Shown here: in pieces, positions 4,399-39,568 of the stretch | Layout of the letters: every line of letters begins with the position of its first letter | Numbering within the stretch: position 1 is the stretch's first letter | NCBI GenBank assembly: GCA_031549065.1 | Contig: JAVBQM010000073.1 | Location: 1 to 39,568, forward strand | Direction of reading: 5' to 3' | DNA from: Candidatus Gastranaerophilales bacterium | Lineage (GTDB): Bacteria > Cyanobacteriota > Vampirovibrionia > Gastranaerophilales > Gastranaerophilaceae | Length of the DNA stretch: 39,568 nt | The notes under the pieces: generated by a model | What the model saw: the letters and a program-made list of their open reading frames with translations, nothing else | Database searches by the model: none | What the model was told of the DNA's origin: nothing | Position numbers and translations under genes: made by a program

Positions 4399-5712
4399 TT
4401 ATACGCCTTCGGACAAAACTTCCACAAAGCGCTTCACAATTTCTTCTCTATATTTGCCCCCGGAGTCTTTTTTGATTTGTTCGATTGCTTCGGCTTCACT
4501 CAGCGCAGCGCGATATGGCCTGTCTGAAATCATGGCGAAATAACTGTCTGTTATTAAAATAATTTGCGAAATTAATGGGATTTCTTCCCCCTTCATATGG
4601 TTAGGGTAGCCTGTTCCGTCCCAATTTTCGTGGTGATGTTCGATTATCGGAATAATATCTGAAATTTTTGAAATGGGTTTTAAAATTTCCCGCGCTGCAA
4701 TAATCGGATGCGTGAAAACTTGCTCTCTTTCTTCGGGCGTTAATTCACCCGTTTTTTTCAAGATCTCGTTTGGAAGCATAGTATTTCCTATGTCATACAG
4801 AAGCATTGCAACTTTTAGTTTGTCGATTTCCGCTTTTGGAAGTTCAAACTTTTTAGCCAAAAGCGAAGCGAAATTTACTTTGTCTCGCGTAATGCCTTTT
4901 TCATGGTAGGGCGAATAAGATTTGTAAATTGTATCTACAACGCTGTAAAGAGTATCCTTTGTGGAAGCGCCCTGATTGAGCATCTCCTTTGATTGAAGTT
5001 TTTGACTGAGCGATTTTGCCGTTCTTGAATCGAAAGGAATACGGTGTTTTTCAAGAATTTCCACAAAAGTTTCGATTGCAACTTCTTGCCAGGACACTTC
5101 TTTTGCCGTTGTTGCCAACTTAACCTGGTTCCTGCCGGACTTTTTAGCCAGATACATTGCCCTGTCTGCAATTTCGATTAATTCGTCAATGTCGAGCGTG
5201 TGTTCAATAAACGTTGCGACACCTATACTTGCAGTGATTTTACCCACTTCATCGACCTGGCTGCTTTCAATCGATTGACGCAGCCTTTCTGCTGCAATCA
5301 TCCCGCCTGCAGCATCAATACCCGGTAAAATTACGCTGAATTCTTCCCCGCCTATTCTTGAAGCTATGTCAACAGAACGGGCGTTTTCACTAATAGCTTT
5401 TGCAATTGCGCTGATAGCTTTGTCACCCGCGGCATGCCCGTGTGTGTCGTTAATTCGTTTTAAGTGGTCTAAATCAAGCGAAATCAAAGTAAAAGGCTGG
5501 TTTAAACGCAAAGCACGACTGGCTTCCCTTGAAAGGGCGTCTTCGTAAAATCTTCTGTTGAAAAGTTCTGTGAGGGGGTCTGTTACTGCTTGTTTTTTAA
5601 CGGTTTCAAATAAGTTTGCAATTGTTATTGCAAGTTCGATTTGACGCCCAAAAAGATTCAGGAAATTAAGTTCATTTTCATTTGGCGCAATTCTTGGAGA
5701 AAACACAACCAA
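4399..5712 (-). CDS. GGDEF diguanylate cyclase plus HD-GYP phosphodiesterase; downstream part of a gene split by an in-frame stop
   Basis: GGDEF domain with active site GGEEF and an RxxD I-site (RSVD) 5 residues upstream. HD-GYP domain with HHHENWDGTGYP. The track start is a TTG. The ORF is in frame with 5731-6306 across a single TAA. Confidence 0.8.
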   Translation of the reverse strand: MVVFSPRIAPNENELNFLNLFGRQIELAITIANLFETVKKQAVTDPLTELFNRRFYEDALSREASRALRLNQPFTLISLDLDHLKRINDTHGHAAGDKAISAIAKAISENARSVDIASRIGGEEFSVILPGIDAAGGMIAAERLRQSIESSQVDEVGKITASIGVATFIEHTLDIDELIEIADRAMYLAKKSGRNQVKLATTAKEVSWQEVAIETFVEILEKHRIPFDSRTAKSLSQKLQSKEMLNQGASTKDTLYSVVDTIYKSYSPYHEKGITRDKVNFASLLAKKFELPKAEIDKLKVAMLLYDIGNTMLPNEILKKTGELTPEEREQVFTHPIIAAREILKPISKISDIIPIIEHHHENWDGTGYPNHMKGEEIPLISQIILITDSYFAMISDRPYRAALSEAEAIEQIKKDSGGKYREEIVKRFVEVLSEGV

Positions 5713-10145: not shown

Positions 10146-10305
10146 CTTTCCCCACGTTATCATTATAATTGAACCGTAATCTTTATAAATCATATAAATA
10201 AAGCAGAAAAAAAAGCGAATTTGAGCATATAATAAGATTGTATAATATTTGCTTTTTTACCAGAAGATATTATAAAATAGTTATCAAACAAAATTGAGGA
10301 TAGAA

Positions 10306-11214
10306 ATGAAGAAGTTATCAGCACTATTTATTGCAATTTTTATGGGCATAAGCGCGTTTAATGCTGCTTGGGCGATTAAAACAATCGTAATTACGCCTTT
10401 AGTTCGAAGCGGAATCCAAAAATATAAGGTGGGTAATTATCTTGGCGCTAAACAAGACATCCAAGACGCGATTAGCAAAAACCCGAATGATCCAATAGCG
10501 AATTATTATTTGGGCAATGTTTACACAAAAATCGGTGATAAAGATAAGGCCGTAGGCGCTTATCAAAGAGTTATCGAAATAAATGAAAACAAAGGTCTTT
10601 CAACGTATGCCGGTGTTGCAATTATTTGCCTCAACGAGCCTGTGGCTAAGGCTGAATTTGTAAACCCGGTTGATGCGGCAGTTGGTAACCCGGTTCAAAA
10701 TGCAGAACAGGCAAGCGCATGTACAAATGCAAAAAATATGCTTAAAGGTTCAGAGGCCGAACAAGACATGAACGCATTTATTCGCTCGGGTCAATTTATG
10801 CATCAGGAAGCAAGAGACAAAATAAAAGAGAAATCTTTGCAAAATGTTCAACAAAAAATTAACAGCGATGAAAAGAATATAGATTTTTCAGAATTCAAAT
10901 ACTTAAATGATGCTTCAGGGGCTATGCCAAGCGACAAAGAAATTGCAGATGCCGTTAAAACGCTTGCGAAAGCCGGTTTTAACCCGCTTAACTATACAAC
11001 AACACAAGGTTTCAGTCCTCAATTGGCGCAATTGAATTACATGGTTCCAAATAACAATAATGCTAATTCGGGTTTTGAAATGCTGCCTTATTTAATGCAG
11101 CATGACGGTTATAAAGATGGTAAAGTCAGCCCGCAATTACTTCAAAATATGATGATGGGCCAATTGATGTCAAGCTATGACCTTGGCGGCACAAGCAACA
11201 ACAGGGGTTTTTAA
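10306..11214 (+). CDS. Secreted TPR-repeat protein
   Basis: Signal peptide MKKLSALFIAIFMGISAFNAAWA. TPR-like repeats (GNYLGAKQDIQDAISKNPNDPIANYYLGNVYTKIGDKDKAVGAYQRVIEI). GAGGA lies before the ATG at 10306; the track start at 10294 is a TTG. Confidence 0.7.
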   Translation: MKKLSALFIAIFMGISAFNAAWAIKTIVITPLVRSGIQKYKVGNYLGAKQDIQDAISKNPNDPIANYYLGNVYTKIGDKDKAVGAYQRVIEINENKGLSTYAGVAIICLNEPVAKAEFVNPVDAAVGNPVQNAEQASACTNAKNMLKGSEAEQDMNAFIRSGQFMHQEARDKIKEKSLQNVQQKINSDEKNIDFSEFKYLNDASGAMPSDKEIADAVKTLAKAGFNPLNYTTTQGFSPQLAQLNYMVPNNNNANSGFEMLPYLMQHDGYKDGKVSPQLLQNMMMGQLMSSYDLGGTSNNRGF

Positions 11215-11658
11215 GTGGCGCCAGATAGCAAAACAGTTATTTCATCAACAAGATTCGGGGATATAGAAATTGATAAGTCGCTGTTTTTTGAGTTTGTGGC
11301 GCCGATAATCGGTTATAACGGCCACAGGTTTTTTGCCCTTATCGATAATAAACCCGATTCGCCTTTTAAATGGCTTCAATCGGCTGAAGACCCGGAACTT
11401 GCTTTTCCTATAACGCTTCCCAGCTATTTCAACATTGACTACACTTTTACAATAGAAGATGCTGAAGCTGAATTACTCGGGGTAGAAAAAGCAGAAGATG
11501 TTATGGCAATTAACATTGTAAATATCCCCCATGATTATCCGCAAGAAGCTACAGTGAACCTTTCAGCGCCAATTGTTATTAATACGAATACAAACAGCGC
11601 AATGCAAATTATTTTGAAAAATACTGATTACAAAGTTAAACACTCCTTATTCTCTTGA
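11215..11658 (+). CDS. fliW: Flagellar assembly factor FliW
   Basis: 147 aa. FGDIEIDKSLFFEFVAPIIGY...FALIDNKPDSPFKWLQS...PITLPSYF...NLSAPIVINTNTNSAMQIIL matches the FliW family pattern. The GTG start directly abuts the upstream stop, and csrA follows. Confidence 0.85.
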   Translation: MAPDSKTVISSTRFGDIEIDKSLFFEFVAPIIGYNGHRFFALIDNKPDSPFKWLQSAEDPELAFPITLPSYFNIDYTFTIEDAEAELLGVEKAEDVMAINIVNIPHDYPQEATVNLSAPIVINTNTNSAMQIILKNTDYKVKHSLFS

Positions 11659-11664
11659 GGAAAA

Positions 11665-11925
11665 ATGTTAGTTTTAACAAGAAAAGTAAACGAAAAATTG
11701 ATTATCAATGGCAATATTGAAGTTGTTGTGCTTGATGTTACGAAAAATTCCGTACGGATTGGTGTAAAAGCGCCGAGTGATGTGCAAATTTACCGTGAGG
11801 AAATTTATCGGGAAATTCAAAAGGCTAATAACCTTGCTGTGAGCGCAAACCCTGAAGATATTGGCAAAATTGGGGTCGGGAGCGCGAAAAAATTTGACTT
11901 GATCTCGAAATTGAAAAATGATTAG
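11665..11925 (+). CDS. csrA: Carbon storage regulator CsrA (FliW-partnered type with C-terminal extension)
   Basis: MLVLTRKVNEKLIINGNIEVVVLDVTKNSVRIGVKAPSDVQIYREEIY is a canonical CsrA fold sequence. At 86 aa it has an extended C-terminus. Confidence 0.92.
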   Translation: MLVLTRKVNEKLIINGNIEVVVLDVTKNSVRIGVKAPSDVQIYREEIYREIQKANNLAVSANPEDIGKIGVGSAKKFDLISKLKND

Positions 11926-12517
11926 TGCAGATGCGAAAACCTTATTTTACGAAAAACGCTACAATGAGGCTTTTGAAATTTTTAAAAATAACAAAATGCC
12001 TTATGAGGCGGGACTTTGTAAGCTTTTAACCGGTGATATTGAGCGTGCAAAAAATATTTGGCAAAGTGTTGAAACTCCTTGTATAGCAACGAATTGGGGC
12101 CTAATTGTCCTTGATTTAATAAAATTAAAAAGTATTAAACCCCCCTGCTACTTTCAAATTCGTAGTTTTTTGGAGGTTTATCTTAACCTTTTTATTGAAA
12201 ACGGGCTTGTTGAGTATGCCGAAAATTTAATTAGCGCGTATGAAATTTTTTCACGTGTAAATTTTGAAAGTTGTAAATTCATTGCCCGAGCACTTTTTGC
12301 ACATAAATATTGGGAGCTTGCACTTGAATTTATTGAAAAATCGCGCGGTATTTGCTACCCCGACCCTGAGGCGCTTTTAATTGAAGCGCAATGCTTTCAT
12401 ATACTTTGCAGGCCGGATAAAGCACTAAAATCGCTCAACGAATTGCTTGAAATTCTGCCGGATTATGTTCCCGCAGTTGAACTTAAACGGGAAATCCAAA
12501 GCGTTCAATCTTTTTAA
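11918..12517 (+). CDS. Hypothetical helical-repeat (TPR-like) protein, translationally coupled to csrA
   Basis: 199-aa ORF whose ATG overlaps the csrA stop by 8 nt. The helical-repeat character is a visual impression (YNEAFEIFK..., ...DKALKSLNELLEILPDYVPA). No family recognised. Confidence 0.55.
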   Translation: MISADAKTLFYEKRYNEAFEIFKNNKMPYEAGLCKLLTGDIERAKNIWQSVETPCIATNWGLIVLDLIKLKSIKPPCYFQIRSFLEVYLNLFIENGLVEYAENLISAYEIFSRVNFESCKFIARALFAHKYWELALEFIEKSRGICYPDPEALLIEAQCFHILCRPDKALKSLNELLEILPDYVPAVELKREIQSVQSF

Positions 12518-28512: not shown

Positions 28513-29660
28513 ATTATCTCCTTTAAGATTTTAATTCCTTCGTCTATTTGTTCTTTTGTGATTGTTAATGGCGGCGCAAAACGCAAAACGTTTTCGCCCG
28601 CAGAAAGTATTAAAAGTCCCTTTTCAAGCGCCTTTTTTACATATTCTGCCGGTTTGCCTTCAACCTCTAAACCCAGCAATAGCCCTTGGCCTCTCAGCTT
28701 TGGTAACTGCGATTTAAAATATTCGCCCATTTTTTGAACATGCGCAAGAAATTCAGGCTTTGCAACTTTTTTTGCAACATAAAGCCCTGCCGCACAAGAA
28801 AGAGGGTTTCCGCCAAAAGTTGTACCGTGTGTAGCTGGCGTGAAAATTTCTGTAAATTCACCGCGCGCTAAAATTGCGCCGATTGGAATGCCGCCCCCCA
28901 AACCCTTCGCAAGGGTTAAAATATCAGGTATGACACTAAAATTTTCATAAGCAAAAAACTTGCCCGTGCGCCCGATTCCTGTTTGAACTTCGTCGAAAAT
29001 AAGGGCGATATTTTTCTCATCGCAAAGCTTGCGAATAGCCTCTAGAAAACTTTTTTCTGCGGGCACAACGCCGCCTTCACCTTGAACAGGTTCTAAAAAT
29101 ATAGCGCAAACGCTCTCATCGACGAGTTTTTTAACCGATTCAAAATTGTTGAATTCAGCAAACCTGACCTCTCCAATTAAAGGTTCAAAGCCTTGCTGAT
29201 ATTTGGTTTGGCCGGTTAGTGCCAAGGCGCCCGTGCTTCTTCCGTGGAAAGAATTTTTAAATGAAATGAAATTTGTGCAACTTTCTCCCTTAGTCTTTTT
29301 TGCCCTTAGGCGTGCAAGTTTCAGTGCACATTCGTTCGCTTCTGTGCCCGAATTACAGAAAAAAGCCCTATCAAAATCGTGCTTGCACAACTCTTGTGCC
29401 AAAAGTGTTTGCGGCTCGTTATAATAAAGGTTTGAGCAATGTAAAAGCTTATCAATCTGGCTCTTTAAAGTATCCTTAAACCCTTCGTCGTCATACCCGA
29501 GCGAATTTACGGCAATTCCCGCTGTAAAATCAAGGTATTTTTTGCCGTTTTTGTCGATAATATAACCGTCTTTAGCCCTATCAACTACAATTTTGTAGCG
29601 AGAGTAGGTGTTAAAGGTATATTTTTCGCTTATTTCAATAATTTCTTCTGTTGTTGTCAT
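28509..29660 (-). CDS. argD: Acetylornithine aminotransferase (class III PLP aminotransferase)
   Basis: 383 aa. [24 protein letters not shown] and the PLP-lysine context TLAKGLGGG. It lies within the arg operon. Confidence 0.88.
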
Positions 29661-30340
29661 TAATCTAATATGCCCAAATCTAGAACTTTTTTCACTTCTT
29701 TTTTGATAACTCTGTGAATTTCGACTGCTTCCATATCACCGTCAATCGCAATAAAACCGTGCTCTTTGTTGAATTTTTCATACTCCTTTAAACACTTTGT
29801 TTGATAAATTCCAAAACTATCGTAAATATCTCCTGATAGTCCTATATCGCGTCCGCTTTCAAAATAATCCAATCCGTCATTACCTATTAAGCGCTTAAGA
29901 AGCTTGTCTACGGGCATTTTCAAATAAAATACTAAATCAGGTTCAGGGGCGTAATCATAGAGGTTTTTCACCCAGTTAAGGTTGTGGCCGCGCACGCTGT
30001 CACGAACAAAAGCGGTATAGGTGTATCTGTCCATTAATACTACAAAACCTGCCTTAAGCGCGGGTATAATAACATTTTCCAGCCTGTCGGCATAATCTGC
30101 CGCGTAAAGAAGACTGAAAGTGATAGCGTTCAATAGGTTGTGTTCTTTTGCGTGTGTGATAACTTCTGAAACAAAACGCGAAGTTTTCCACTCTGAAATC
30201 AAGCAAGCGTAGCCCTGGCTTTGGACATAACTTTCAAGTAATTTTACCTGTGTTGATTTTCCTGCGCCGTCTGTACCTTCAATTACAATCAAAAGTCCGT
30301 CATAACCGTGTTTTTTATATGTTTTTACTTTATCAGCCAC
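29660..30340 (-). CDS. Thymidylate kinase-like P-loop kinase, paralogue A
   Basis: 226 aa. P-loop IVIEGTDGAGKSTQ and DRY motif (MDRYTYTAF). It diverges from canonical Tmk in the NMP-binding and AYQ regions. GTG start shares 1 nt with the upstream stop, and its stop shares 1 nt with the argD ATG. Confidence 0.65.
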   Translation of the reverse strand: MADKVKTYKKHGYDGLLIVIEGTDGAGKSTQVKLLESYVQSQGYACLISEWKTSRFVSEVITHAKEHNLLNAITFSLLYAADYADRLENVIIPALKAGFVVLMDRYTYTAFVRDSVRGHNLNWVKNLYDYAPEPDLVFYLKMPVDKLLKRLIGNDGLDYFESGRDIGLSGDIYDSFGIYQTKCLKEYEKFNKEHGFIAIDGDMEAVEIHRVIKKEVKKVLDLGILD

Positions 30341-31014
30341 TAGAATTCCACGCCTTTCTTGTTTAAAAGCTCGCGCACAATTTCCCTTAAATAAGTTTGT
30401 TTAGTATGAATATTTTCAAGCGCGTCAATTCTCACCAAACCATACTCGTCTACCATGTCTTTGTATTCTTCAATCACGCGGTTTTGAAATAGCAAATAGC
30501 TTTTATAAGGGTTATTTGAAAGATGTAAATCCATACCTGCTTCATAAAACTTTGGCTGGCGGTTTTGACAAATTCTATCGAGCGAAACTTTCGCACTAAC
30601 GTCAAAATAAAGTGCTAAATCAGGCTTAATGGCAAAACCGTACATATTACGCACCCATTTTTTGTCAACATTTCTTGCTACATCGCGCGCAAAAGCAGTA
30701 TAAACATAGCGGTCTGCAAGAACAATAAAACCTGCTTTAAGTGCGGGAACAATCACTTTTTCGTGTCTGTCCGCAAAATCAACCGCATGTAAAAGGCTAA
30801 ACGTACGGCCGGAGAGCGCGTTTTTCTTTTTAGCGCGCTTTGTGGTTTCTGCAATCAGGTTTGAAGAATTCCAGCTTGTTGAAATTACATCTATTTTTTT
30901 GGACTTTAACCAATTGTAGAGTAAATTAACCTGCGTGCTTTTTCCGCTTCCGTCAATTCCTTCTACGCAAATAAGAGTTCCGGGGAGCCCGTGATTATTA
31001 TTAAATCTTAACAT
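30340..31014 (-). CDS. Thymidylate kinase-like P-loop kinase, paralogue B
   Basis: 224 aa. P-loop ICVEGIDGSGKSTQ and ADRYVYTAF. Clearly paralogous to the downstream gene, sharing IPALKAGF(V/I)VL.DRY.YTAF.RD. Confidence 0.65.
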   Translation of the reverse strand: MLRFNNNHGLPGTLICVEGIDGSGKSTQVNLLYNWLKSKKIDVISTSWNSSNLIAETTKRAKKKNALSGRTFSLLHAVDFADRHEKVIVPALKAGFIVLADRYVYTAFARDVARNVDKKWVRNMYGFAIKPDLALYFDVSAKVSLDRICQNRQPKFYEAGMDLHLSNNPYKSYLLFQNRVIEEYKDMVDEYGLVRIDALENIHTKQTYLREIVRELLNKKGVEF

Positions 31015-33157: not shown

Positions 33158-34366
33158 ATGGCAAGAGCTAAATTTGAAAGAAACAAACCTCACGTTAACG
33201 TGGGTACCGTAGGTCACGTTGACCACGGTAAAACAACCTTGACAGCTGCTATTACAGGTGTTATGGCTGCTGCAGGCGGAGCGGAAGCAAAAAAATTCGA
33301 TGAAATCGACGCTGCTCCTGAAGAAAAAGCACGTGGTATCACCATCTCAACTGCACACGTTGAGTATGAAACTACTAACCGCCATTACGCGCACGTTGAC
33401 TGCCCGGGCCACGCGGACTATGTTAAAAACATGATCACAGGTGCGGCGCAAATGGACGGTGCGATTATCGTTGTTGCGGCGACAGACGGTGCGATGCCGC
33501 AAACTCGTAAGCACATCCTTCTTGCTCGTCAAGTTGGTGTTCCTAACCTTGTTGTATTTATGAACAAATGCGATATGGTTGATGATGAAGAATTGCTTGA
33601 CTTGGTTGAAATGGAAGTTCGCGAATTGCTTTCAGCTTATGAATTCGATGGCGACAACATTCCAATCATTCGTGGTTCAGCGCTTAAAGCTTTAGAAGCT
33701 GTTCAAAAAGATTCAAAAGTTGCACGCGGCACAGACAAATGGGTAGACAAAATTTGGGAATTGATGGACGCTATCGACAGCTACATCCCAACTCCTGAAA
33801 GACAAACTGATCTTCCATTCTTAATGCCTGTTGAGGACGTGTTCTCAATCACAGGCCGTGGTACTGTTGCTACAGGTAGAATTGAACGTGGTAAAGTTAA
33901 AGTCGGCGAAGAAGTTGAAATCGTTGGTTTTGGCGCTACTAAGAAAACAACCGTTACAGGTGTTGAAATGTTCAGAAAATTCCTCGATGAAGGTATGGCT
34001 GGTGACAACATCGGCGCGCTTCTTCGCGGCGTTGACAAAACTGAAATCCAACGCGGTCAAGTTTTGGCAAAAACAGGCTCAATCAAACCACACACAAAAT
34101 TCACAGCTAACGTTTACGTTTTGAAAAAAGAAGAAGGCGGACGTCACACTCCATTCTTCCCTGGCTACAGACCTCAGTTCTACATCAGAACAACTGACGT
34201 AACAGGTTCAATCAAATTCAAAGGCGAAATGGTTATGCCTGGTGACAACGTGGAAATGGAAGTTGAACTTATTGCTCCAGTTGCGATTGAACAAGGTATG
34301 AGATTCGCGATTCGCGAAGGCGGCAGAACAGTTGGTGCCGGTCTTGTTGACAAAATTATTGAATAA
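33158..34366 (+). CDS. tuf: Translation elongation factor Tu
   Basis: 402 aa. [18 protein letters not shown] and NKCD GTPase motifs. AAGGAG SD. Confidence 0.97.
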
Positions 34367-34390
34367 TTTCAATTAATAAAACATTAAAAA

Positions 34391-34416
34391 GCCTTTGGGA
34401 AACCAAGGGCTTTTTT
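34391..34416 (+). terminator. Rho-independent terminator of tuf
   Basis: GCCTTTGG, loop GAAA, CCAAGGGC, followed by TTTTTT. Confidence 0.8.
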
Positions 34417-34452
34417 GTTGTGCCAAAAGTTTACTCGTGCTAGAATCTAAAA

Positions 34453-35910
34453 ATGTACAAGGGTTCAAGACAAGAATTTTGCATAAAAACCTGTCCAAGC
34501 GAGGATGTTCAAAAGCTTGAAAATACCCTCAATGGTATGTCAAAACAAGGGTGGGAGCTTTATTCGCTTCATGAAAGTGAAGGAACAAGCGGCATGCAAT
34601 ATAATTGCATTTTCGTTAAAGACGTTCTCACGGCGGATGATTTTGAAGATTTTGAAGACATTTCAGGCTTCAAAAGCAGAATGGAAAAAATGCTTTATTC
34701 AAAAGAAGAGCCTTACGAACTTTGTTTGGGATTGCAAAAGAAAATACGCGAAAAGCGCTGTAAAATTGAAGATATTAAACACTTTCTTGAAACTGCAAAA
34801 GATGACGAGCGTTCTGTTTTAAATGAAGAAATTTCAAAAGAACTAGATTTATTAAATTCTCTTAAAAAACAGTTAAAAAGTCTTCTAAATCCTTCTAAAA
34901 TGGTATCAAACCTTGGTGAAGAAAGACTTTCGATTCATCTGAGTGAGGAAATTTATTGTCTTAATAATCCCGATGTTGAAAAAAACTTGCTCTCGCAAAC
35001 TGTGAAAACCCGTCAGGAATTGACAAACGAGCTTGGCTATATTATCCCTAAGGTAATTTTTGTTGAAAACTCTTCATTAAGACAGTATGAATTTACAATT
35101 AATGTTCACTCAATTCCTGTGACACATTCGTTTGCCTACCCCGAACATTTAATGTATTTTGAGGACGAACTGAATATTAAAAAACTTCCAAAGGGTTCTG
35201 TTCGTGTGCAAGATTTTATCACAAATAGAAGCGTAGTGTGGGTTCCGCGCGAACTTACGCAAGATTTCTGGGTTCAAGGGATAGAGCCGAACGAATACAT
35301 TGCAATGTATCTTAAGTATTTTTCAGTTCGCCATGTTTCAGAAATTTTCAACTACTCGGATGTTAACCGCTATCTTGAAATTGTGAGCGAAAATAACGCT
35401 TTTCTTGTGGACAGCATTTTGGGTGAATATATAAGCATATCTGAATTGAAGTACATTTTCAGCCAGCTTATTCGTGAGCGCGTGAGCATAAAAGACATTA
35501 TCTATATTTTTGAAAAAATTAATGATTTTTCCGATGATTCAACCAAAGTCGATTTGCTCGATAAGCTAAGAATGGCACTATCAAGGCAAATTAGCCACTC
35601 TCTTGCAAATGAAGATAAAGAAATTTTGGGTTATGAAATCGATCAAGACACAATTTCAAAAATCGAAAAACAAATTCAAAGTTTTGAAGATGAAGAGTGC
35701 GCGGTTGTAAAAGTTGATGGCTCAAAATTCGACAAATTAATTAAATCCATTGAAAAACTTTCTGACGCCGAAGGTGTCGTTCTTGTTGCGCCGCAACACT
35801 TAAGACAAGTGCTTTTTGCCCTTGTCTCACAGCTTTTTATAGATATACCGATAATTTGCCCCGAAGAGATTTCCTTAGAATATAACCTTAAAATTGTCGG
35901 CAAGATTTAA
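34453..35910 (+). CDS. Soluble FlhA/SctV (FHIPEP) cytoplasmic-domain-like protein with an N-terminal DUF4177-like domain and a coiled coil
   Basis: 485 aa with no hydrophobic segments. Residues 1-55 resemble DUF4177 (LNGMSKQGWELYSLHE). Residues of about 75-150 are a charged coiled coil. From about residue 155 the sequence aligns by eye with FlhA_C. ELGYIIPKVIFVENSSLRQYEFTINVHSIPV resembles EMGFLPPVVHIRDNMDLQPARYRILMKGVEIG, and RVSIKDIIYIFEKI resembles KVPIRDMRTILETL. Confidence 0.7.
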   Translation: MYKGSRQEFCIKTCPSEDVQKLENTLNGMSKQGWELYSLHESEGTSGMQYNCIFVKDVLTADDFEDFEDISGFKSRMEKMLYSKEEPYELCLGLQKKIREKRCKIEDIKHFLETAKDDERSVLNEEISKELDLLNSLKKQLKSLLNPSKMVSNLGEERLSIHLSEEIYCLNNPDVEKNLLSQTVKTRQELTNELGYIIPKVIFVENSSLRQYEFTINVHSIPVTHSFAYPEHLMYFEDELNIKKLPKGSVRVQDFITNRSVVWVPRELTQDFWVQGIEPNEYIAMYLKYFSVRHVSEIFNYSDVNRYLEIVSENNAFLVDSILGEYISISELKYIFSQLIRERVSIKDIIYIFEKINDFSDDSTKVDLLDKLRMALSRQISHSLANEDKEILGYEIDQDTISKIEKQIQSFEDEECAVVKVDGSKFDKLIKSIEKLSDAEGVVLVAPQHLRQVLFALVSQLFIDIPIICPEEISLEYNLKIVGKI

Positions 35911-36026
35911 TTTTCGCTGAATTTTATATTTTTACAAATTTTAATATTCCCTATGGCAAATTTTTTTCTTTAGCTTACTTGTTAGAAAAGCTCCACAAAG
36001 TAGATTTAACAGGAAATGAGAGAAAG

Positions 36027-36290
36027 ATGATTACGAAAATACAAAACAGCGCAATTGGTTTTAGTGCCAATATTCAGCTTGCGCAGAGTGTAAAAAGGGA
36101 AGTCGGCAATAGGCTTGATGACACAAGATTTAAAAATCAAGTTACAGGTTGCACAAAATTTGACACATTTAAGGTCGGAAAAAATCTCAAAGGTGATACG
36201 CTTGTGGTCGAAGGAGTTAAGGGTAAAGCCAGAACCGTAAAGAATTGCTCAATTGGTGAATTAAAAGCTACAATTCAAAAAATGATGTAG
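36027..36290 (+). CDS. Hypothetical small protein
   Basis: The track ORF starts at a TTG at 35979. The ATG at 36027 (MITKIQNSAIGFSANIQ...) is preceded by a purine-rich GAGAGAAAG. No family recognised. Confidence 0.4.
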   Translation: MITKIQNSAIGFSANIQLAQSVKREVGNRLDDTRFKNQVTGCTKFDTFKVGKNLKGDTLVVEGVKGKARTVKNCSIGELKATIQKMM

Positions 36291-36554: not shown

Positions 36555-36875
36555 TTATGCGTTGAACTCTTTAAGTCTATTTTGCAAACTGCTTCCGCTG
36601 TTTTCCAAGAAACCCAGTTGGCTGTAAGCAGCGACAAGATTTTCTTTTCCGTTGCTTACTGCATTTTGTACCCTAACTGACGTTACTTTTTTGTGTGCGT
36701 CAAACCCCAAACTAACGGTAACACTTGGGTCAAGTTTTTCGCTCACAAAGCTATCAAGATTGCTTAGGGCTTTTGAGAAATTTTTGTCACCCGCAACAAA
36801 CTCTTGCCACTCTTTTGTTCCCGGTGTGCGAAGTGTCCCACAAAAATTTACAGGGCTTATTTTAGATATATTCAT
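36555..36875 (-). CDS. Hypothetical small protein
   Basis: 106-aa ORF with a strong SD (GAAAGGAGAGATAA before the ATG). It begins MNISKISPVNFCGTL. No family recognised. Confidence 0.5.
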   Translation of the reverse strand: MNISKISPVNFCGTLRTPGTKEWQEFVAGDKNFSKALSNLDSFVSEKLDPSVTVSLGFDAHKKVTSVRVQNAVSNGKENLVAAYSQLGFLENSGSSLQNRLKEFNA

Positions 36876-36996: not shown

Positions 36997-38112
36997 ATGG
37001 GGATGAATTTAAAAAAGATTTTTGTAAGTTTTTTACTTATGGCGTTCTTGGCGCCAACGCAGTTGGTTTTGGCAGAAGAGTTTAAAGGCCACGTTGAACA
37101 AAACCAAAACGCGCCCGAGCTTGACCAGAAGCTTTTTACGGGTGATGTGGATACGCTTGATAAGAAGAATGTTGTAAAAATGACCGTTTCGCAGGTGTTG
37201 AGCTCTGGCTACACCATTGAGGGAGATGAGTTTTTTGCAGAAATTACTGATGATGTTAGAAGCGACAAAGGAATTTTAGTTCCGTCGGGAACGATTGTAC
37301 ACGGCACTGTCGGAAAAATTGCTGACCCTAAAAATATGGGCCGTGACGGTTATGTTATTTTGAATTTCGATTATATTCTGACTCCTGACGGCCGTGAAAT
37401 TCCTATTCAGGGCGAATTAACAACAAAAGACGGGAAAATCAAAGGCGCAGCCAAAACCGTTGCAGAACACACGGGCTACACGCTTTTAGGCGGTGTTGCG
37501 GGCGGCTTTGCGGCTCTTAACTTGCTTGGAATTGAAGCCGCTATAGCTTCGCACGGTTATACAATTGCAGGCGGAGCGGCAATTGGTGGTGTTATTGGCC
37601 TTACTGCTGCTGTTATGCGCAAAGGGGACGGCGTTTTAATCAAGCCCGGTGATGAACTTAAAATAACTATGCTGTCTCAAACCAACCTGCCAGTTTTCAG
37701 AAAAGACGCGTTTAAACAGGAAGAACTGCTTTTTGACGGTCTGGACGTAAGAATCAATAAAGTTCTTTATGAAAAAGACCCGTTTGGCGAGGATAATGTA
37801 ATAACACTTTCATTGGGTATAAATAATAATAGTGTGAAAACTTTTACATCGTTTGATATTGCTCTTGTAAGCGATACAAAAAACGTTTTCTACCCTTCTC
37901 CTTTTGGCGATACTTCTCTTTGGCTTAGAACAATTGCGCCCGGAGACAGGGTTGTGGGCAAACTTTCATTTAGTGTTAACGACCGTAAACGCAAACACTG
38001 GTTGGTTTTTTACGACAAAATGACTAAAAAACCTGTTGCAAAATTCTCGGTTGATAATGTCTATAATGATTTAAAAGATGCCACTGAACAAAAAAAGAAA
38101 AAAAGAGCATAA
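36997..38112 (+). CDS. Secreted or membrane protein with a Gly-zipper segment and a C-terminal DUF4352-like beta-sandwich
   Basis: Signal peptide KIFVSFLLMAFLAPTQLVLA. Gly-zipper GGVAGGFAALNLLGIEAAIASHGYTIAGGAAIGGVIGL. C-terminal pattern ITLSLGINNNSVKTFTSFDIALVSD...IAPGDRVVGKLSFSV. TATAAT lies 7 nt upstream of the ATG and no SD is visible. Confidence 0.6.
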   Translation: MGMNLKKIFVSFLLMAFLAPTQLVLAEEFKGHVEQNQNAPELDQKLFTGDVDTLDKKNVVKMTVSQVLSSGYTIEGDEFFAEITDDVRSDKGILVPSGTIVHGTVGKIADPKNMGRDGYVILNFDYILTPDGREIPIQGELTTKDGKIKGAAKTVAEHTGYTLLGGVAGGFAALNLLGIEAAIASHGYTIAGGAAIGGVIGLTAAVMRKGDGVLIKPGDELKITMLSQTNLPVFRKDAFKQEELLFDGLDVRINKVLYEKDPFGEDNVITLSLGINNNSVKTFTSFDIALVSDTKNVFYPSPFGDTSLWLRTIAPGDRVVGKLSFSVNDRKRKHWLVFYDKMTKKPVAKFSVDNVYNDLKDATEQKKKKRA

Positions 38113-38914: not shown

Positions 38915-39568
38915 ATGGCATACGAAACTGACGTAGATTCGTATAAGAAAATAGTCCGTTTATCAGATGATGAAATTACTGCCCTCTGGGAGCGGTATTT
39001 CCAAAATCGCGAAAACAAGGCCGTTCGCGATGAATTGATTATGCAATATATTTACCTCACGCGTTATGTAATAGGCCGTATTAAAGTTAATTTACCCCCG
39101 AGTTTTTCTTATGAAGATATTGCAAGTTATGGCATTGAAGGCTTGATTGACGCCATTGAAAAATATGCGCCCGGCAAAGGCGCAAAGTTTGAAACTTACG
39201 CCCTGATGAGAATTCGTGGCTCGATTATCGACAAAGTTCGAGCGCAAGACTTTTTGCCGCGTTCAATTCGTAAAAAAATTAAAGAAATTAAAAATGCAAC
39301 GGAAAAACTCAAGCAACAGCTCGGCCGTGCCCCTACAAGCGCTGAAGTGGCCCAAATATTAGGGATTGAAAAAGAAAAGGTTGAAGAGATTTTATCACAC
39401 GATACGGGAATCGATTCAATATATGATAAAAAAGGCAATTCGGAGGACGGAGCCGAGATTATCGACACCATTGCCGATGAGCGCACTCAAGCGCCGGATG
39501 AAGTGCTTGAAATGAAAGACTCTAAACATGAACTTGAAATTGCTCTTAAAAAGCTTCCCGAGCGAGAG
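38915..39568 (+). CDS. fliA: Flagellar-type alternative sigma factor (FliA/WhiG, sigma-28 family), 3'-truncated by the window edge
   Basis: My translation from the ATG at 38915 begins MAYETDVDSYKKIVRLSDDEITALWERYFQNRENKAVRDELIMQYIYLTRYVIGRI. Region 2 follows: YGIEGLIDAIEKYAPGKGAKFETYALMRIRGSIIDKVRAQDFLPRS. The frame stays open to the end of the window. Confidence 0.8.
   Translation, partial: MAYETDVDSYKKIVRLSDDEITALWERYFQNRENKAVRDELIMQYIYLTRYVIGRIKVNLPPSFSYEDIASYGIEGLIDAIEKYAPGKGAKFETYALMRIRGSIIDKVRAQDFLPRSIRKKIKEIKNATEKLKQQLGRAPTSAEVAQILGIEKEKVEEILSHDTGIDSIYDKKGNSEDGAEIIDTIADERTQAPDEVLEMKDSKHELEIALKKLPERE

Follow-up and report, generated by a model that had tools for sequence, protein, structure and literature searches.

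The 39,568-nucleotide stretch of DNA analysed here (the window) comprises positions 1 to 39,568 of the forward strand of contig JAVBQM010000073.1, from Candidatus Gastranaerophilales bacterium (GenBank assembly GCA_031549065.1). On its forward strand, at 34453-35910, lies a gene with an ATG start that encodes a protein of 485 amino acids plus a stop. The gene and its product, both called S below, are related to FlhA, the gate subunit of the flagellar export apparatus, and as judged by sequence comparison and structure modelling S is a genuine, conserved, cytosolic paralogue of the FlhA C-terminal domain (FlhA_C).

The Pfam family FHIPEP matches S with an E-value of 2.7e-41, residues 139-475 corresponding to profile positions 321-654 of 657; positions 1-320, which describe the membrane domain, remain unmatched, so that only the cytoplasmic half is present. 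Equivalog level was not reached with either NCBIfam model. For TIGR01398 (FlhA), S scores 131 bits against a cutoff of 772, which makes it a relative of FlhA and not an FlhA orthologue; for TIGR01399 (SctV) it scores 94 bits (E 6.9e-27) against a cutoff of 692. The top PDB match by sequence is B. subtilis FlhA_C (3mix, E 7e-17). An AlphaFold2 model, built from a 40-sequence family alignment and having a mean predicted local distance difference test score (pLDDT) of 74, was compared with solved structures using Foldseek and matched FlhA_C and SctV_C over about 340 columns with a best E of 5.8e-20, the matches including 6ch2, 3a5i, 3mix, 7amy and 7qij. Together with the Pfam match, the model indicates that S has the four-subdomain fold of FHIPEP/FlhA-SctV proteins.

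No transmembrane (TM) segment was detected ahead of the FlhA_C part by Kyte-Doolittle averaging over 19-residue windows, none of which exceeds 1.6 before residue 450. The sole region above this value, residues 450-471, aligns to the core of D4 in B. subtilis FlhA_C, which is soluble. The N-terminal domain of about eight TM helices found in export-gate proteins is absent from S, and no TM segment was predicted in 15 family representatives. An earlier note on this DNA had placed an FlhA_C without membrane domain after a small head and a helical stretch, an architecture that is borne out, and had seen no hydrophobic segment in the protein; the one hydrophobic stretch, at residues 450-471, is equivalent to a core element of a soluble domain.

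Anatomy and expression of S

Four parts can be distinguished in S. Residues 1-60 (34453-34632, forward strand) form a head that carries the motif LNxMSKxGWELYS and that, modelled alone with AlphaFold2, adopts a beta-alpha-beta-beta fold with a pLDDT of 91. Residues 61-85 (34633-34707, forward strand) form an acidic linker that is probably disordered (pLDDT <50) and has a constant length across the family alignment. Residues 86-146 (34708-34890, forward strand) are predicted by AlphaFold2 to form a hairpin of two helices, 87-112 and 117-145, and are strongly conserved, with Y88, C91, Q95, K97, K109, F111, E119, R120, L123, N124, E126, L134, L137, K138 and L141 invariant. Where the earlier note had a coiled coil of about 75 residues, the helical character stood, and the coiled coil gave way to this modelled hairpin. 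In the FlhA of the lineage, the last TM helix is followed by a cytoplasmic helix, to which the final 25 or so residues of the hairpin are homologous. Residues 147-485 (34891-35907, forward strand) contain a linker like that of FlhA (FlhA_L; NPSKM..LG) and subdomains D1-D4 of FlhA_C, as assigned by Pfam, Foldseek and alignment.

The head had been likened to DUF4177 (PF13783) in the same note. DUF4177 is indeed the top Pfam family in all 22 family-member heads (best E 7.9e-5), although every score lies below the gathering threshold of 25 bits: the whole S protein reaches E 0.14 and 12.8 bits, and its isolated head 16.9 bits. The label "DUF4177-like" is therefore reasonable but unproven. In a Foldseek search of the PDB with the head, no match was obtained at E<0.02 and no solved DUF4177 structure was among the matches; the closest folds were the C-terminal domain of KCTD5 and the dodecins (E 0.02-0.06). 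Both of these form oligomers, and the likeness of the modelled head to them is only a hint that the head may oligomerise. An origin of the N-terminal module in a gene of a flagellar cluster was considered and ruled out, since a hidden Markov model of residues 1-150, searched against all open reading frames (ORFs) of 130 fetched loci, matched S proteins only.

S is preceded by tuf (33158-34366) and by the intrinsic terminator of tuf (34386-34415, forward strand), which has a 13-bp stem, a GAAA-type loop and a U run and which isolates S from upstream transcription. The terminator folds at -18.3 kcal/mol (z -5.04), and none of 200 shuffled sequences folds as well, in agreement with the view in the earlier note that S is a unit of its own. 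Between terminator and start codon lies a sigma-70-type promoter (34418-34446, forward strand), composed of a weak -35 element TTGTGC (34418-34423), a 17-nucleotide spacer and an extended -10 element TGcTAGAAT (34438-34446). Its TAGAAT, at 34441-34446, stands 6 nucleotides ahead of the ATG, and no Shine-Dalgarno sequence is present. This arrangement too had been noticed earlier, and it recurs in orthologues: TGnTAnAAT or a close variant was found exactly 6 nucleotides before the ATG in ten more loci (L001, L002, L004, L026, L046, L060, L064, L111, L131 and L132). The promoter was not reported by a consensus promoter scan, because its -35 element is weak, with only 3 of 6 matching positions; the case for it rests on this conservation across orthologues. 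A leaderless mRNA starting at about A34453 is accordingly predicted for the subfamily to which the S of the window belongs. In a second S subfamily, whose head begins MQYVIKTCS, a Shine-Dalgarno sequence is present instead of the close -10 element.

Family, origin and the membrane FlhA of the lineage

A homologue search of 5.8 billion clustered proteins returned 729 matches to S. The best 120 of these are 478-500 amino acids long, with 99-100% query coverage and 55-92% identity, so that the fusion recurs at full length in relatives; the sources named among them are Candidatus Gastranaerophilales, "Cyanobacteria bacterium SIG30" and unclassified bacteria, and the database labels of these proteins are "FlhA" or "FHIPEP family type III secretion protein". 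An exhaustive profile search covering 1.84 billion representatives gave about 15 clusters of full-length S at 50% identity (476-507 amino acids), all having the same head at their start and no predicted TM segment. The family alignment is conserved from end to end, through the head motif, the acidic linker and the helical region rich in invariant residues. As far as sampled, S appears confined to Gastranaerophilales (class Vampirovibrionia/Melainabacteria). Between S and an 86%-identical orthologue in locus L131, the ratio of nonsynonymous to synonymous substitution rates (dN/dS) is 0.056, a value that is approximate because dS is near saturation; every segment lies below 0.1, the hairpin and the head (0.054) included, and the acidic linker has 0.043.

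These data bear on the possibility, raised in the earlier note, that S is a 5'-truncated flhA remnant. Such a remnant, whether a decaying pseudogene or an artefact of assembly or gene calling, was rejected as having virtually no chance of being correct. Frameshifts do occur in some canonical flhA genes of the lineage in public assemblies; however, the start, the length and the N-terminal 150 residues of S are kept in more than 100 proteins from independent assemblies, the low dN/dS indicates a maintained protein, the promoter is conserved in orthologues, and tuf with its terminator lies immediately upstream and leaves no space for TM-coding sequence.

The membrane-bound counterpart of S was found in the same lineage. 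The best canonical match to S among the 1.84 billion proteins is P0147, a Vampirovibrionia-type FlhA of 708 amino acids with 7 predicted TM segments, and a search with its TM half returned membrane FlhAs named Gastranaerophilus and "Cya...". In locus L009 the canonical flhA lies within an SLT-fliE-fliF-X-fliH-flhA cluster. A DNA pattern derived from the D3 motif that S shares with this FlhA, LIRE[KR]VSIKDI..IFE[KR], was scanned over one genome per GTDB species and matched at least 120 loci, nearly all of those listed coming from records titled Gastranaerophilales, Melainabacteria or Vampirovibrio. Among the matches listed there are at least 92 canonical flhA loci and at least 28 S genes. Canonical genes that lie wholly inside their tile and contig encode about 692-739 amino acids with 6-9 predicted TM segments, and the S genes occur in Gastranaerophilales-type metagenome-assembled genomes (MAGs) only. 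At least two MAGs carry both genes, CASFXY01 (L042 and L100) and JAVBOC01 (L122 and L088). S thus coexists with an intact membrane FlhA in the lineage, and the flagellar-type export apparatus that the earlier note had considered probable for this organism is represented there by its canonical flhA. Among the 13 flagellar genes common to all four Melainabacteria genomes, Di Rienzi et al. (2013) had two "flhA" entries, one of them outside the flagellar cluster; the latter may be either paralogue.

An arrangement in which S supplies a missing part of a split FlhA was also considered, after a first search had returned only proteins of at most 580 amino acids that end at one spot. It was rejected as a general feature, because the uncut canonical flhA genes in the GTDB genomes, among the at least 92 listed, are intact and encode about 700 amino acids. 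As a separate observation, one Gastranaerophilales clade has in many ENA assemblies a canonical flhA that is broken within the same stretch of about 40 nucleotides after ...ERLCDYARFSK (L009 11600-11800; proteins P0289-P0348). The indels vary by assembly: L009 lacks 10 nucleotides, and the tails of P0289 and P0292 are frameshifted in different ways. D4 runs on in another frame. In the GTDB genomes among the matches listed the spot is intact wherever a tile covers it. The break may reflect a hot spot for indels, heterogeneity of the population or an artefact of assembly.

Comparison of S with the membrane FlhA points to an origin by duplication. By BLASTP, S is 31-32% identical to the FlhA_C of the lineage (E ~1e-45) and 21% identical to E. 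coli FlhA (E 1e-14), while the lineage FlhA_C and E. coli FlhA share 29% identity (E 1.6e-45). S has two motifs in common with the lineage FlhA, NP[NS][RK]M..LG in the linker, which is missing in E. coli FlhA, and LIRE[KR]VSIKDI..IFE in D3. Alignments of S to the full-length canonical proteins of L013 and L016 and to P0147 start at S residues 121-123, equivalent to FlhA residues ~318-326. Homology therefore begins in the cytoplasmic helix after the last TM helix, which is probably where the duplicate was cut. S is probably an old duplicate of the lineage's own flhA that arose inside Vampirovibrionia and then diverged fast; the eight-helix membrane domain would have been exchanged, right after the last TM helix, for a module of about 120 residues comprising head, acidic linker and helical hairpin.

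Among known proteins, S can be compared with several systems. With the FlhA_C of Salmonella (3A5I/6AI0), B. subtilis (3MIX) and Vibrio (7AMY, a nonamer) it shares the four-subdomain fold and the linker, sequence homology, the D3 motif L(I/L)xE(K/R)VS(I/V)(K/R)D and the equivalent of Asp456; unlike these it has no membrane domain, bears its own head and hairpin, lies outside a flagellar operon, conserves neither Phe459, Thr490 nor the GYXLI motif, and is strongly diverged in D2 and D4. The canonical FlhA of Gastranaerophilales and Vampirovibrionia (L013-L016, P0147) is closest to the FlhA_C part of S, with which it has the linker motif NPx(R/K)M..LG and at least two MAGs in common; it differs in its 6-9 predicted TM segments, its length of about 700 amino acids, its place in the fliE-fliF-X-fliH-flhA cluster and its retained chaperone-binding dimple. 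SctV_C proteins (MxiA, YscV, EscV, SsaV, CdsV) have the same fold and are more distant in sequence than FlhA, and S differs from them in having no injectisome genes in its context and no membrane domain. A conceptual analogue is provided by SctQ_C/SpaO_C, produced from internal translation starts, and by the FliM/FliN relationship, in which free soluble copies assemble with the machine. SctQ_C/SpaO_C, however, comes from the same gene as its parent domain and is identical to it in sequence, whereas S has a gene of its own that is highly diverged and encodes extra domains.

Other uncharacterised proteins resemble S in carrying FlhA_C detached from the eight-helix gate domain. Members of a family termed FDYK (P0149-P0223, e.g. 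P0153, P0175/P0271; L006/L007 10001-12079) have 480-780 amino acids and consist of a soluble N-domain of about 160 amino acids (M..FDYK.FA...QA..L.P.D.S), 0-4 TM helices and an FlhA_C with 41-60% identity to Gastranaerophilales FlhA. Between their N-domain and the N-terminus of ORF X, identity is 31-49% (26% for the weakest full-length match). ORF X lies between fliF and fliH, in the position of fliG, in L009 (8111-9160) and in about 50 of the tiles with a canonical flhA, and has no Pfam match. P0197 (1139 amino acids) joins an FlhA_C with 39% identity to Gastranaerophilales FlhA to a FliI/SctN-type ATPase (ATP-synt_ab and T3SS_ATPase_C). P0146/P0285 (895/952 amino acids) contain two FlhA_C domains plus HEAT repeats and have no TM segment before the first FlhA_C match, and their FlhA_C domains are closer to E. 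coli-type FlhA. FDYK proteins mostly have at least one TM helix and an N-domain homologous to ORF X, whereas the N-terminus of S matched nothing else in the 130 loci. As two of the detached types are closest to Gastranaerophilales FlhA, sequence comparison suggests a lineage-specific expansion of the sorting-ring domain. In the literature, no paper was found on a membrane-less FHIPEP/FlhA paralogue with the architecture of S, and nothing relevant on the function of DUF4177, which agrees with the remark in the earlier note that no characterised protein is built in this way. The FHIPEP domain family is known and S proteins are present in databases under generic FlhA or FHIPEP names; what appears to be new is the architecture.

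Core and ligand surfaces

To locate functional sites in S, E. coli FlhA, which has the same length as Salmonella FlhA and in which D456, F459 and T490 were confirmed, was used as a ruler. For the subdomains, the boundaries of D1-D4 reported in the 3A5I paper were taken. The chaperone-binding dimple of Salmonella FlhA is defined by Asp456, Phe459 and Thr490 (PMC8166844), and only the Asp of these three residues is kept in S. At the Asp456 position, both the membrane FlhA of the lineage and the S family have Asp (D254 in S, invariant). Phe459 corresponds to Tyr or Phe in the membrane FlhA and to Thr or Ser in S, and Thr490 to Thr, Ser or Ala in the membrane FlhA and to Met, Gln, Arg or Lys in S. 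The protein of the window has Met here and so matches the T490M mutation, which affects this chaperone-binding position (PMC8166844). The GYXLI motif (368-372), which governs FlhA_C domain motions according to one report (PMC9431611), is G-x-G-L-L in the lineage membrane FlhA and has been replaced in the S family by S-E-E-[IL]-x, with S164 and E166 invariant. The FlhA_L-like linker of S reads [SN]P[SD]xM..LG and is shared with the lineage FlhA; P147 and G155 are invariant and M150 nearly so. The Salmonella linker residues E351, W354 and D356 are conserved in neither S nor the lineage FlhA.

When S proteins were paired with the lineage FlhA, identity averaged 0.37 for D3, 0.33 for D1, 0.24 for the linker, 0.18 for D4 and 0.17 for D2. 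In the FlhA ring, inter-subunit contacts are made by D1, D3 and the linker, while chaperones are bound by D2 and the D1-D2 dimple, and FliJ/CdsO by the D4 cleft (PMC8166844). With D1, D3 and the linker best kept and D2, D4 and the dimple diverged, S would appear to be a core that can form rings and whose ligand surfaces have been re-specified. That D1 and D3 are its best-conserved subdomains is only suggestive with regard to nonameric ring assembly. With the dimple, the GYXLI motif and D2/D4 all remodelled, S does not appear to be a second copy of the normal docking site for late substrates.

Genomic surroundings and possible role

Export-gate genes lie in flagellar or injectisome clusters, but S has housekeeping neighbours in the window and in relatives, and no flagellar neighbour was found in 9 assembly loci and 15 genome tiles (including L001-L005 and L131-L133). 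An inference of function from association was consequently abandoned. The sole conserved row belongs to subfamily 2 and consists of Omp85/BamA, OmpH/Skp, a PNP_UDP phosphorylase, S and a GH77 4-alpha-glucanotransferase (tiles L011, L031, L035, L051, L056, L075, L076, L081, L083, L106, L113 and L124). In L004, a GH77 gene lies 2.5 kb upstream of S.

Further away in the window, fliW (11215-11658, forward strand; Pfam FliW E 1.9e-37) adjoins an ORF on the same strand at 11665-11925 (sequence MLVLTRKVNEKLIINGNIEVVVLDV...) that we take to be csrA, an assignment made from the sequence itself and not with a hidden Markov model. Together, fliW and csrA are the gene pair of flagellin homeostasis. Two TPR proteins (10294-11214 and 11918-12517) flank the pair. 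Near the end of the window, the 5' part of a gene like that of sigma-28 (FliA/SigD) was recognised from its translation (38915-39568, forward strand) and runs off the end. Its counterpart in L131 (5643-6467) encodes 274 amino acids with Sigma70_r2, r3 and r4, and the order of S, a 371-amino-acid protein, a 180-amino-acid ORF and the sigma gene is the same in both. The earlier note had thus been right about FliW and CsrA, and its FliA is present as a partial sigma-28-like ORF only. From these three genes the source organism probably makes flagellin, although no flagellin gene lies in the 39,568 nucleotides of the window.

Several other genes were noted around S. The 371-amino-acid protein between S and the sigma gene is secreted and has a weak TrbI-like match (36997-38112), and the ORF of 180 amino acids lies in the same interval. 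Just downstream of S are two ORFs of about 100 amino acids, 35979-36290 on the forward and 36555-36875 on the reverse strand, that match no family; small unannotated ORFs occur likewise just downstream of S in L131. Cyclic-di-GMP-type signalling genes (GGDEF with HD_5/HD-GYP, GAF-GGDEF-HD_5, response regulator-HD_5 and CHASE2-GGDEF) were seen adjacent to S or near it in the window (4399-5712), L001 (11449-13386), L132 (6198-8129), L002 (7979-9082) and L131 (8081-9877), which may be chance, such genes being common in these genomes. On the minus strand of the window, at 29660-31014, two adjacent genes like those of thymidylate or deoxynucleoside kinases (226 and 224 amino acids) lie upstream of arginine-biosynthesis genes.

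The reading favoured here, tentatively and at slightly less than even chances, is that S oligomerises with itself and serves the flagellar-type export apparatus as an accessory or regulatory partner and not as a second chaperone dock. The head and hairpin would replace membrane anchoring as the device that gathers FlhA_C copies, by self-oligomerisation; the weak KCTD5/dodecin likeness of the modelled head and the very strong conservation of the hairpin are consistent with such an oligomerisation module. With its kept FlhA linker and D1/D3 core, S could build a separate ring of FlhA_C type, or it could attach to the membrane FlhA ring or intercalate with it. The remodelled Phe459/Thr490 pocket, GYXLI hinge and D2/D4 surfaces would keep S from duplicating the late-substrate dock; its linker helix might, for example, engage the conserved dimple of membrane FlhA, or S might attract partners specific to the lineage. 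For the subfamily of the window, expression of S would be as a leaderless mRNA from its sigma-70-type promoter, outside a flagellar operon.

Several observations weigh against this partnership with the export apparatus. No flagellar gene adjoins S in any locus read, the one conserved row of neighbours, in subfamily 2, is made up of housekeeping genes, and the only link to export in its context is the sigma-28-like gene about 3 kb away in the clade of the window. Co-occurrence with canonical FlhA was seen in at least two MAGs, a small count. Ring formation, oligomerisation of the head and contact with membrane FlhA are predictions, and the full-length AlphaFold2 model, with a predicted template modelling score of 0.47, does not give the arrangement of the domains. 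An equally good reading of the lost dimple and GYXLI is that the domain has left flagellar export entirely. This last point leads to the main alternative, in which the FlhA_C fold has been exapted as a cytosolic protein-docking scaffold outside flagellar or type III export, with the head and hairpin specifying new partners. This is a serious contender, if on balance an unlikely one. It would account for the absence of flagellar neighbours, for an expression of housekeeping type (the sigma-70 leaderless promoter, or a Shine-Dalgarno sequence and co-orientation behind PNP_UDP), for the lost Phe459, Thr490 and GYXLI and for the strongly diverged D2 and D4. It would also suit the distribution of the family, since published surveys found complete flagellar gene sets in only about one quarter of Gastranaerophilales genomes, yet the family is abundant, with its 729 matches. 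The same surveys report, however, that the other ~75%, the "non-flagellated" genomes, keep FlhA, FlhB, FliP, FliR, FliI, FliJ, FliE and rod genes, so that the presumed partner machine is still present. Exaptation is further opposed by the retention of the FlhA linker motif and D1/D3 core in lineage-specific form, and by the MAGs that hold S and FlhA together. FlhA_C is not known to function outside type III export, which also counts against it.

It had been proposed in the earlier note that S could hold export chaperones in the cytosol, as a platform or a decoy. On this model, S would bind FliS-flagellin, FlgN-FlgK/L and FliT-FliD as FlhA_C does. The complete four-subdomain fold predicted for S, the invariant D254 and the flagellin pathway suggested by FliW, CsrA and the sigma-28-like gene favour this idea, and B. 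subtilis FlhA_C is reported to bind the FliS/flagellin/FliW complex (PMC6070490). Two of the three dimple residues, however, are replaced throughout the family, with a T490M-like Met in the window, whereas the membrane FlhA of the lineage keeps them, and D2 is the least conserved subdomain, with D4 close to it. The loss of the dimple and the divergence of D2/D4 argue against a simple decoy for canonical export chaperones, and this role is judged improbable. A bolder version of the favoured partnership with the export apparatus was also considered and is regarded as quite unlikely. In it, Gastranaerophilales would have turned the FlhA ring domain into a toolkit of paralogues (S, the FDYK family and the FlhA_C-FliI fusion) that rewires flagellum-derived export, with S as a trans-acting ring subunit or cap whose linker plugs the membrane FlhA dimple, or as a second ring tier. 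S might then determine the choice of substrates for export, and in the ~75% of gut species with export core and rod only these could include non-flagellar cargo.

FlhA_C/SctV_C forms the ring at the centre of substrate sorting in every type III export machine, and has been studied only within the membrane gate. S constitutes a natural experiment that separates the contributions of the ring core from those of the docking surfaces, and it may reveal a new layer of control of the export hierarchy or a new use of the fold. The labels "FlhA" and "FHIPEP family type III secretion protein" carried by S proteins can inflate flagellar-gene counts in genome surveys. The host lineage is abundant and uncultured, lives in human and animal gut and often has its flagellar set reduced to the export core, and S bears on the question whether such reduced flagellar remnants are secretion systems.

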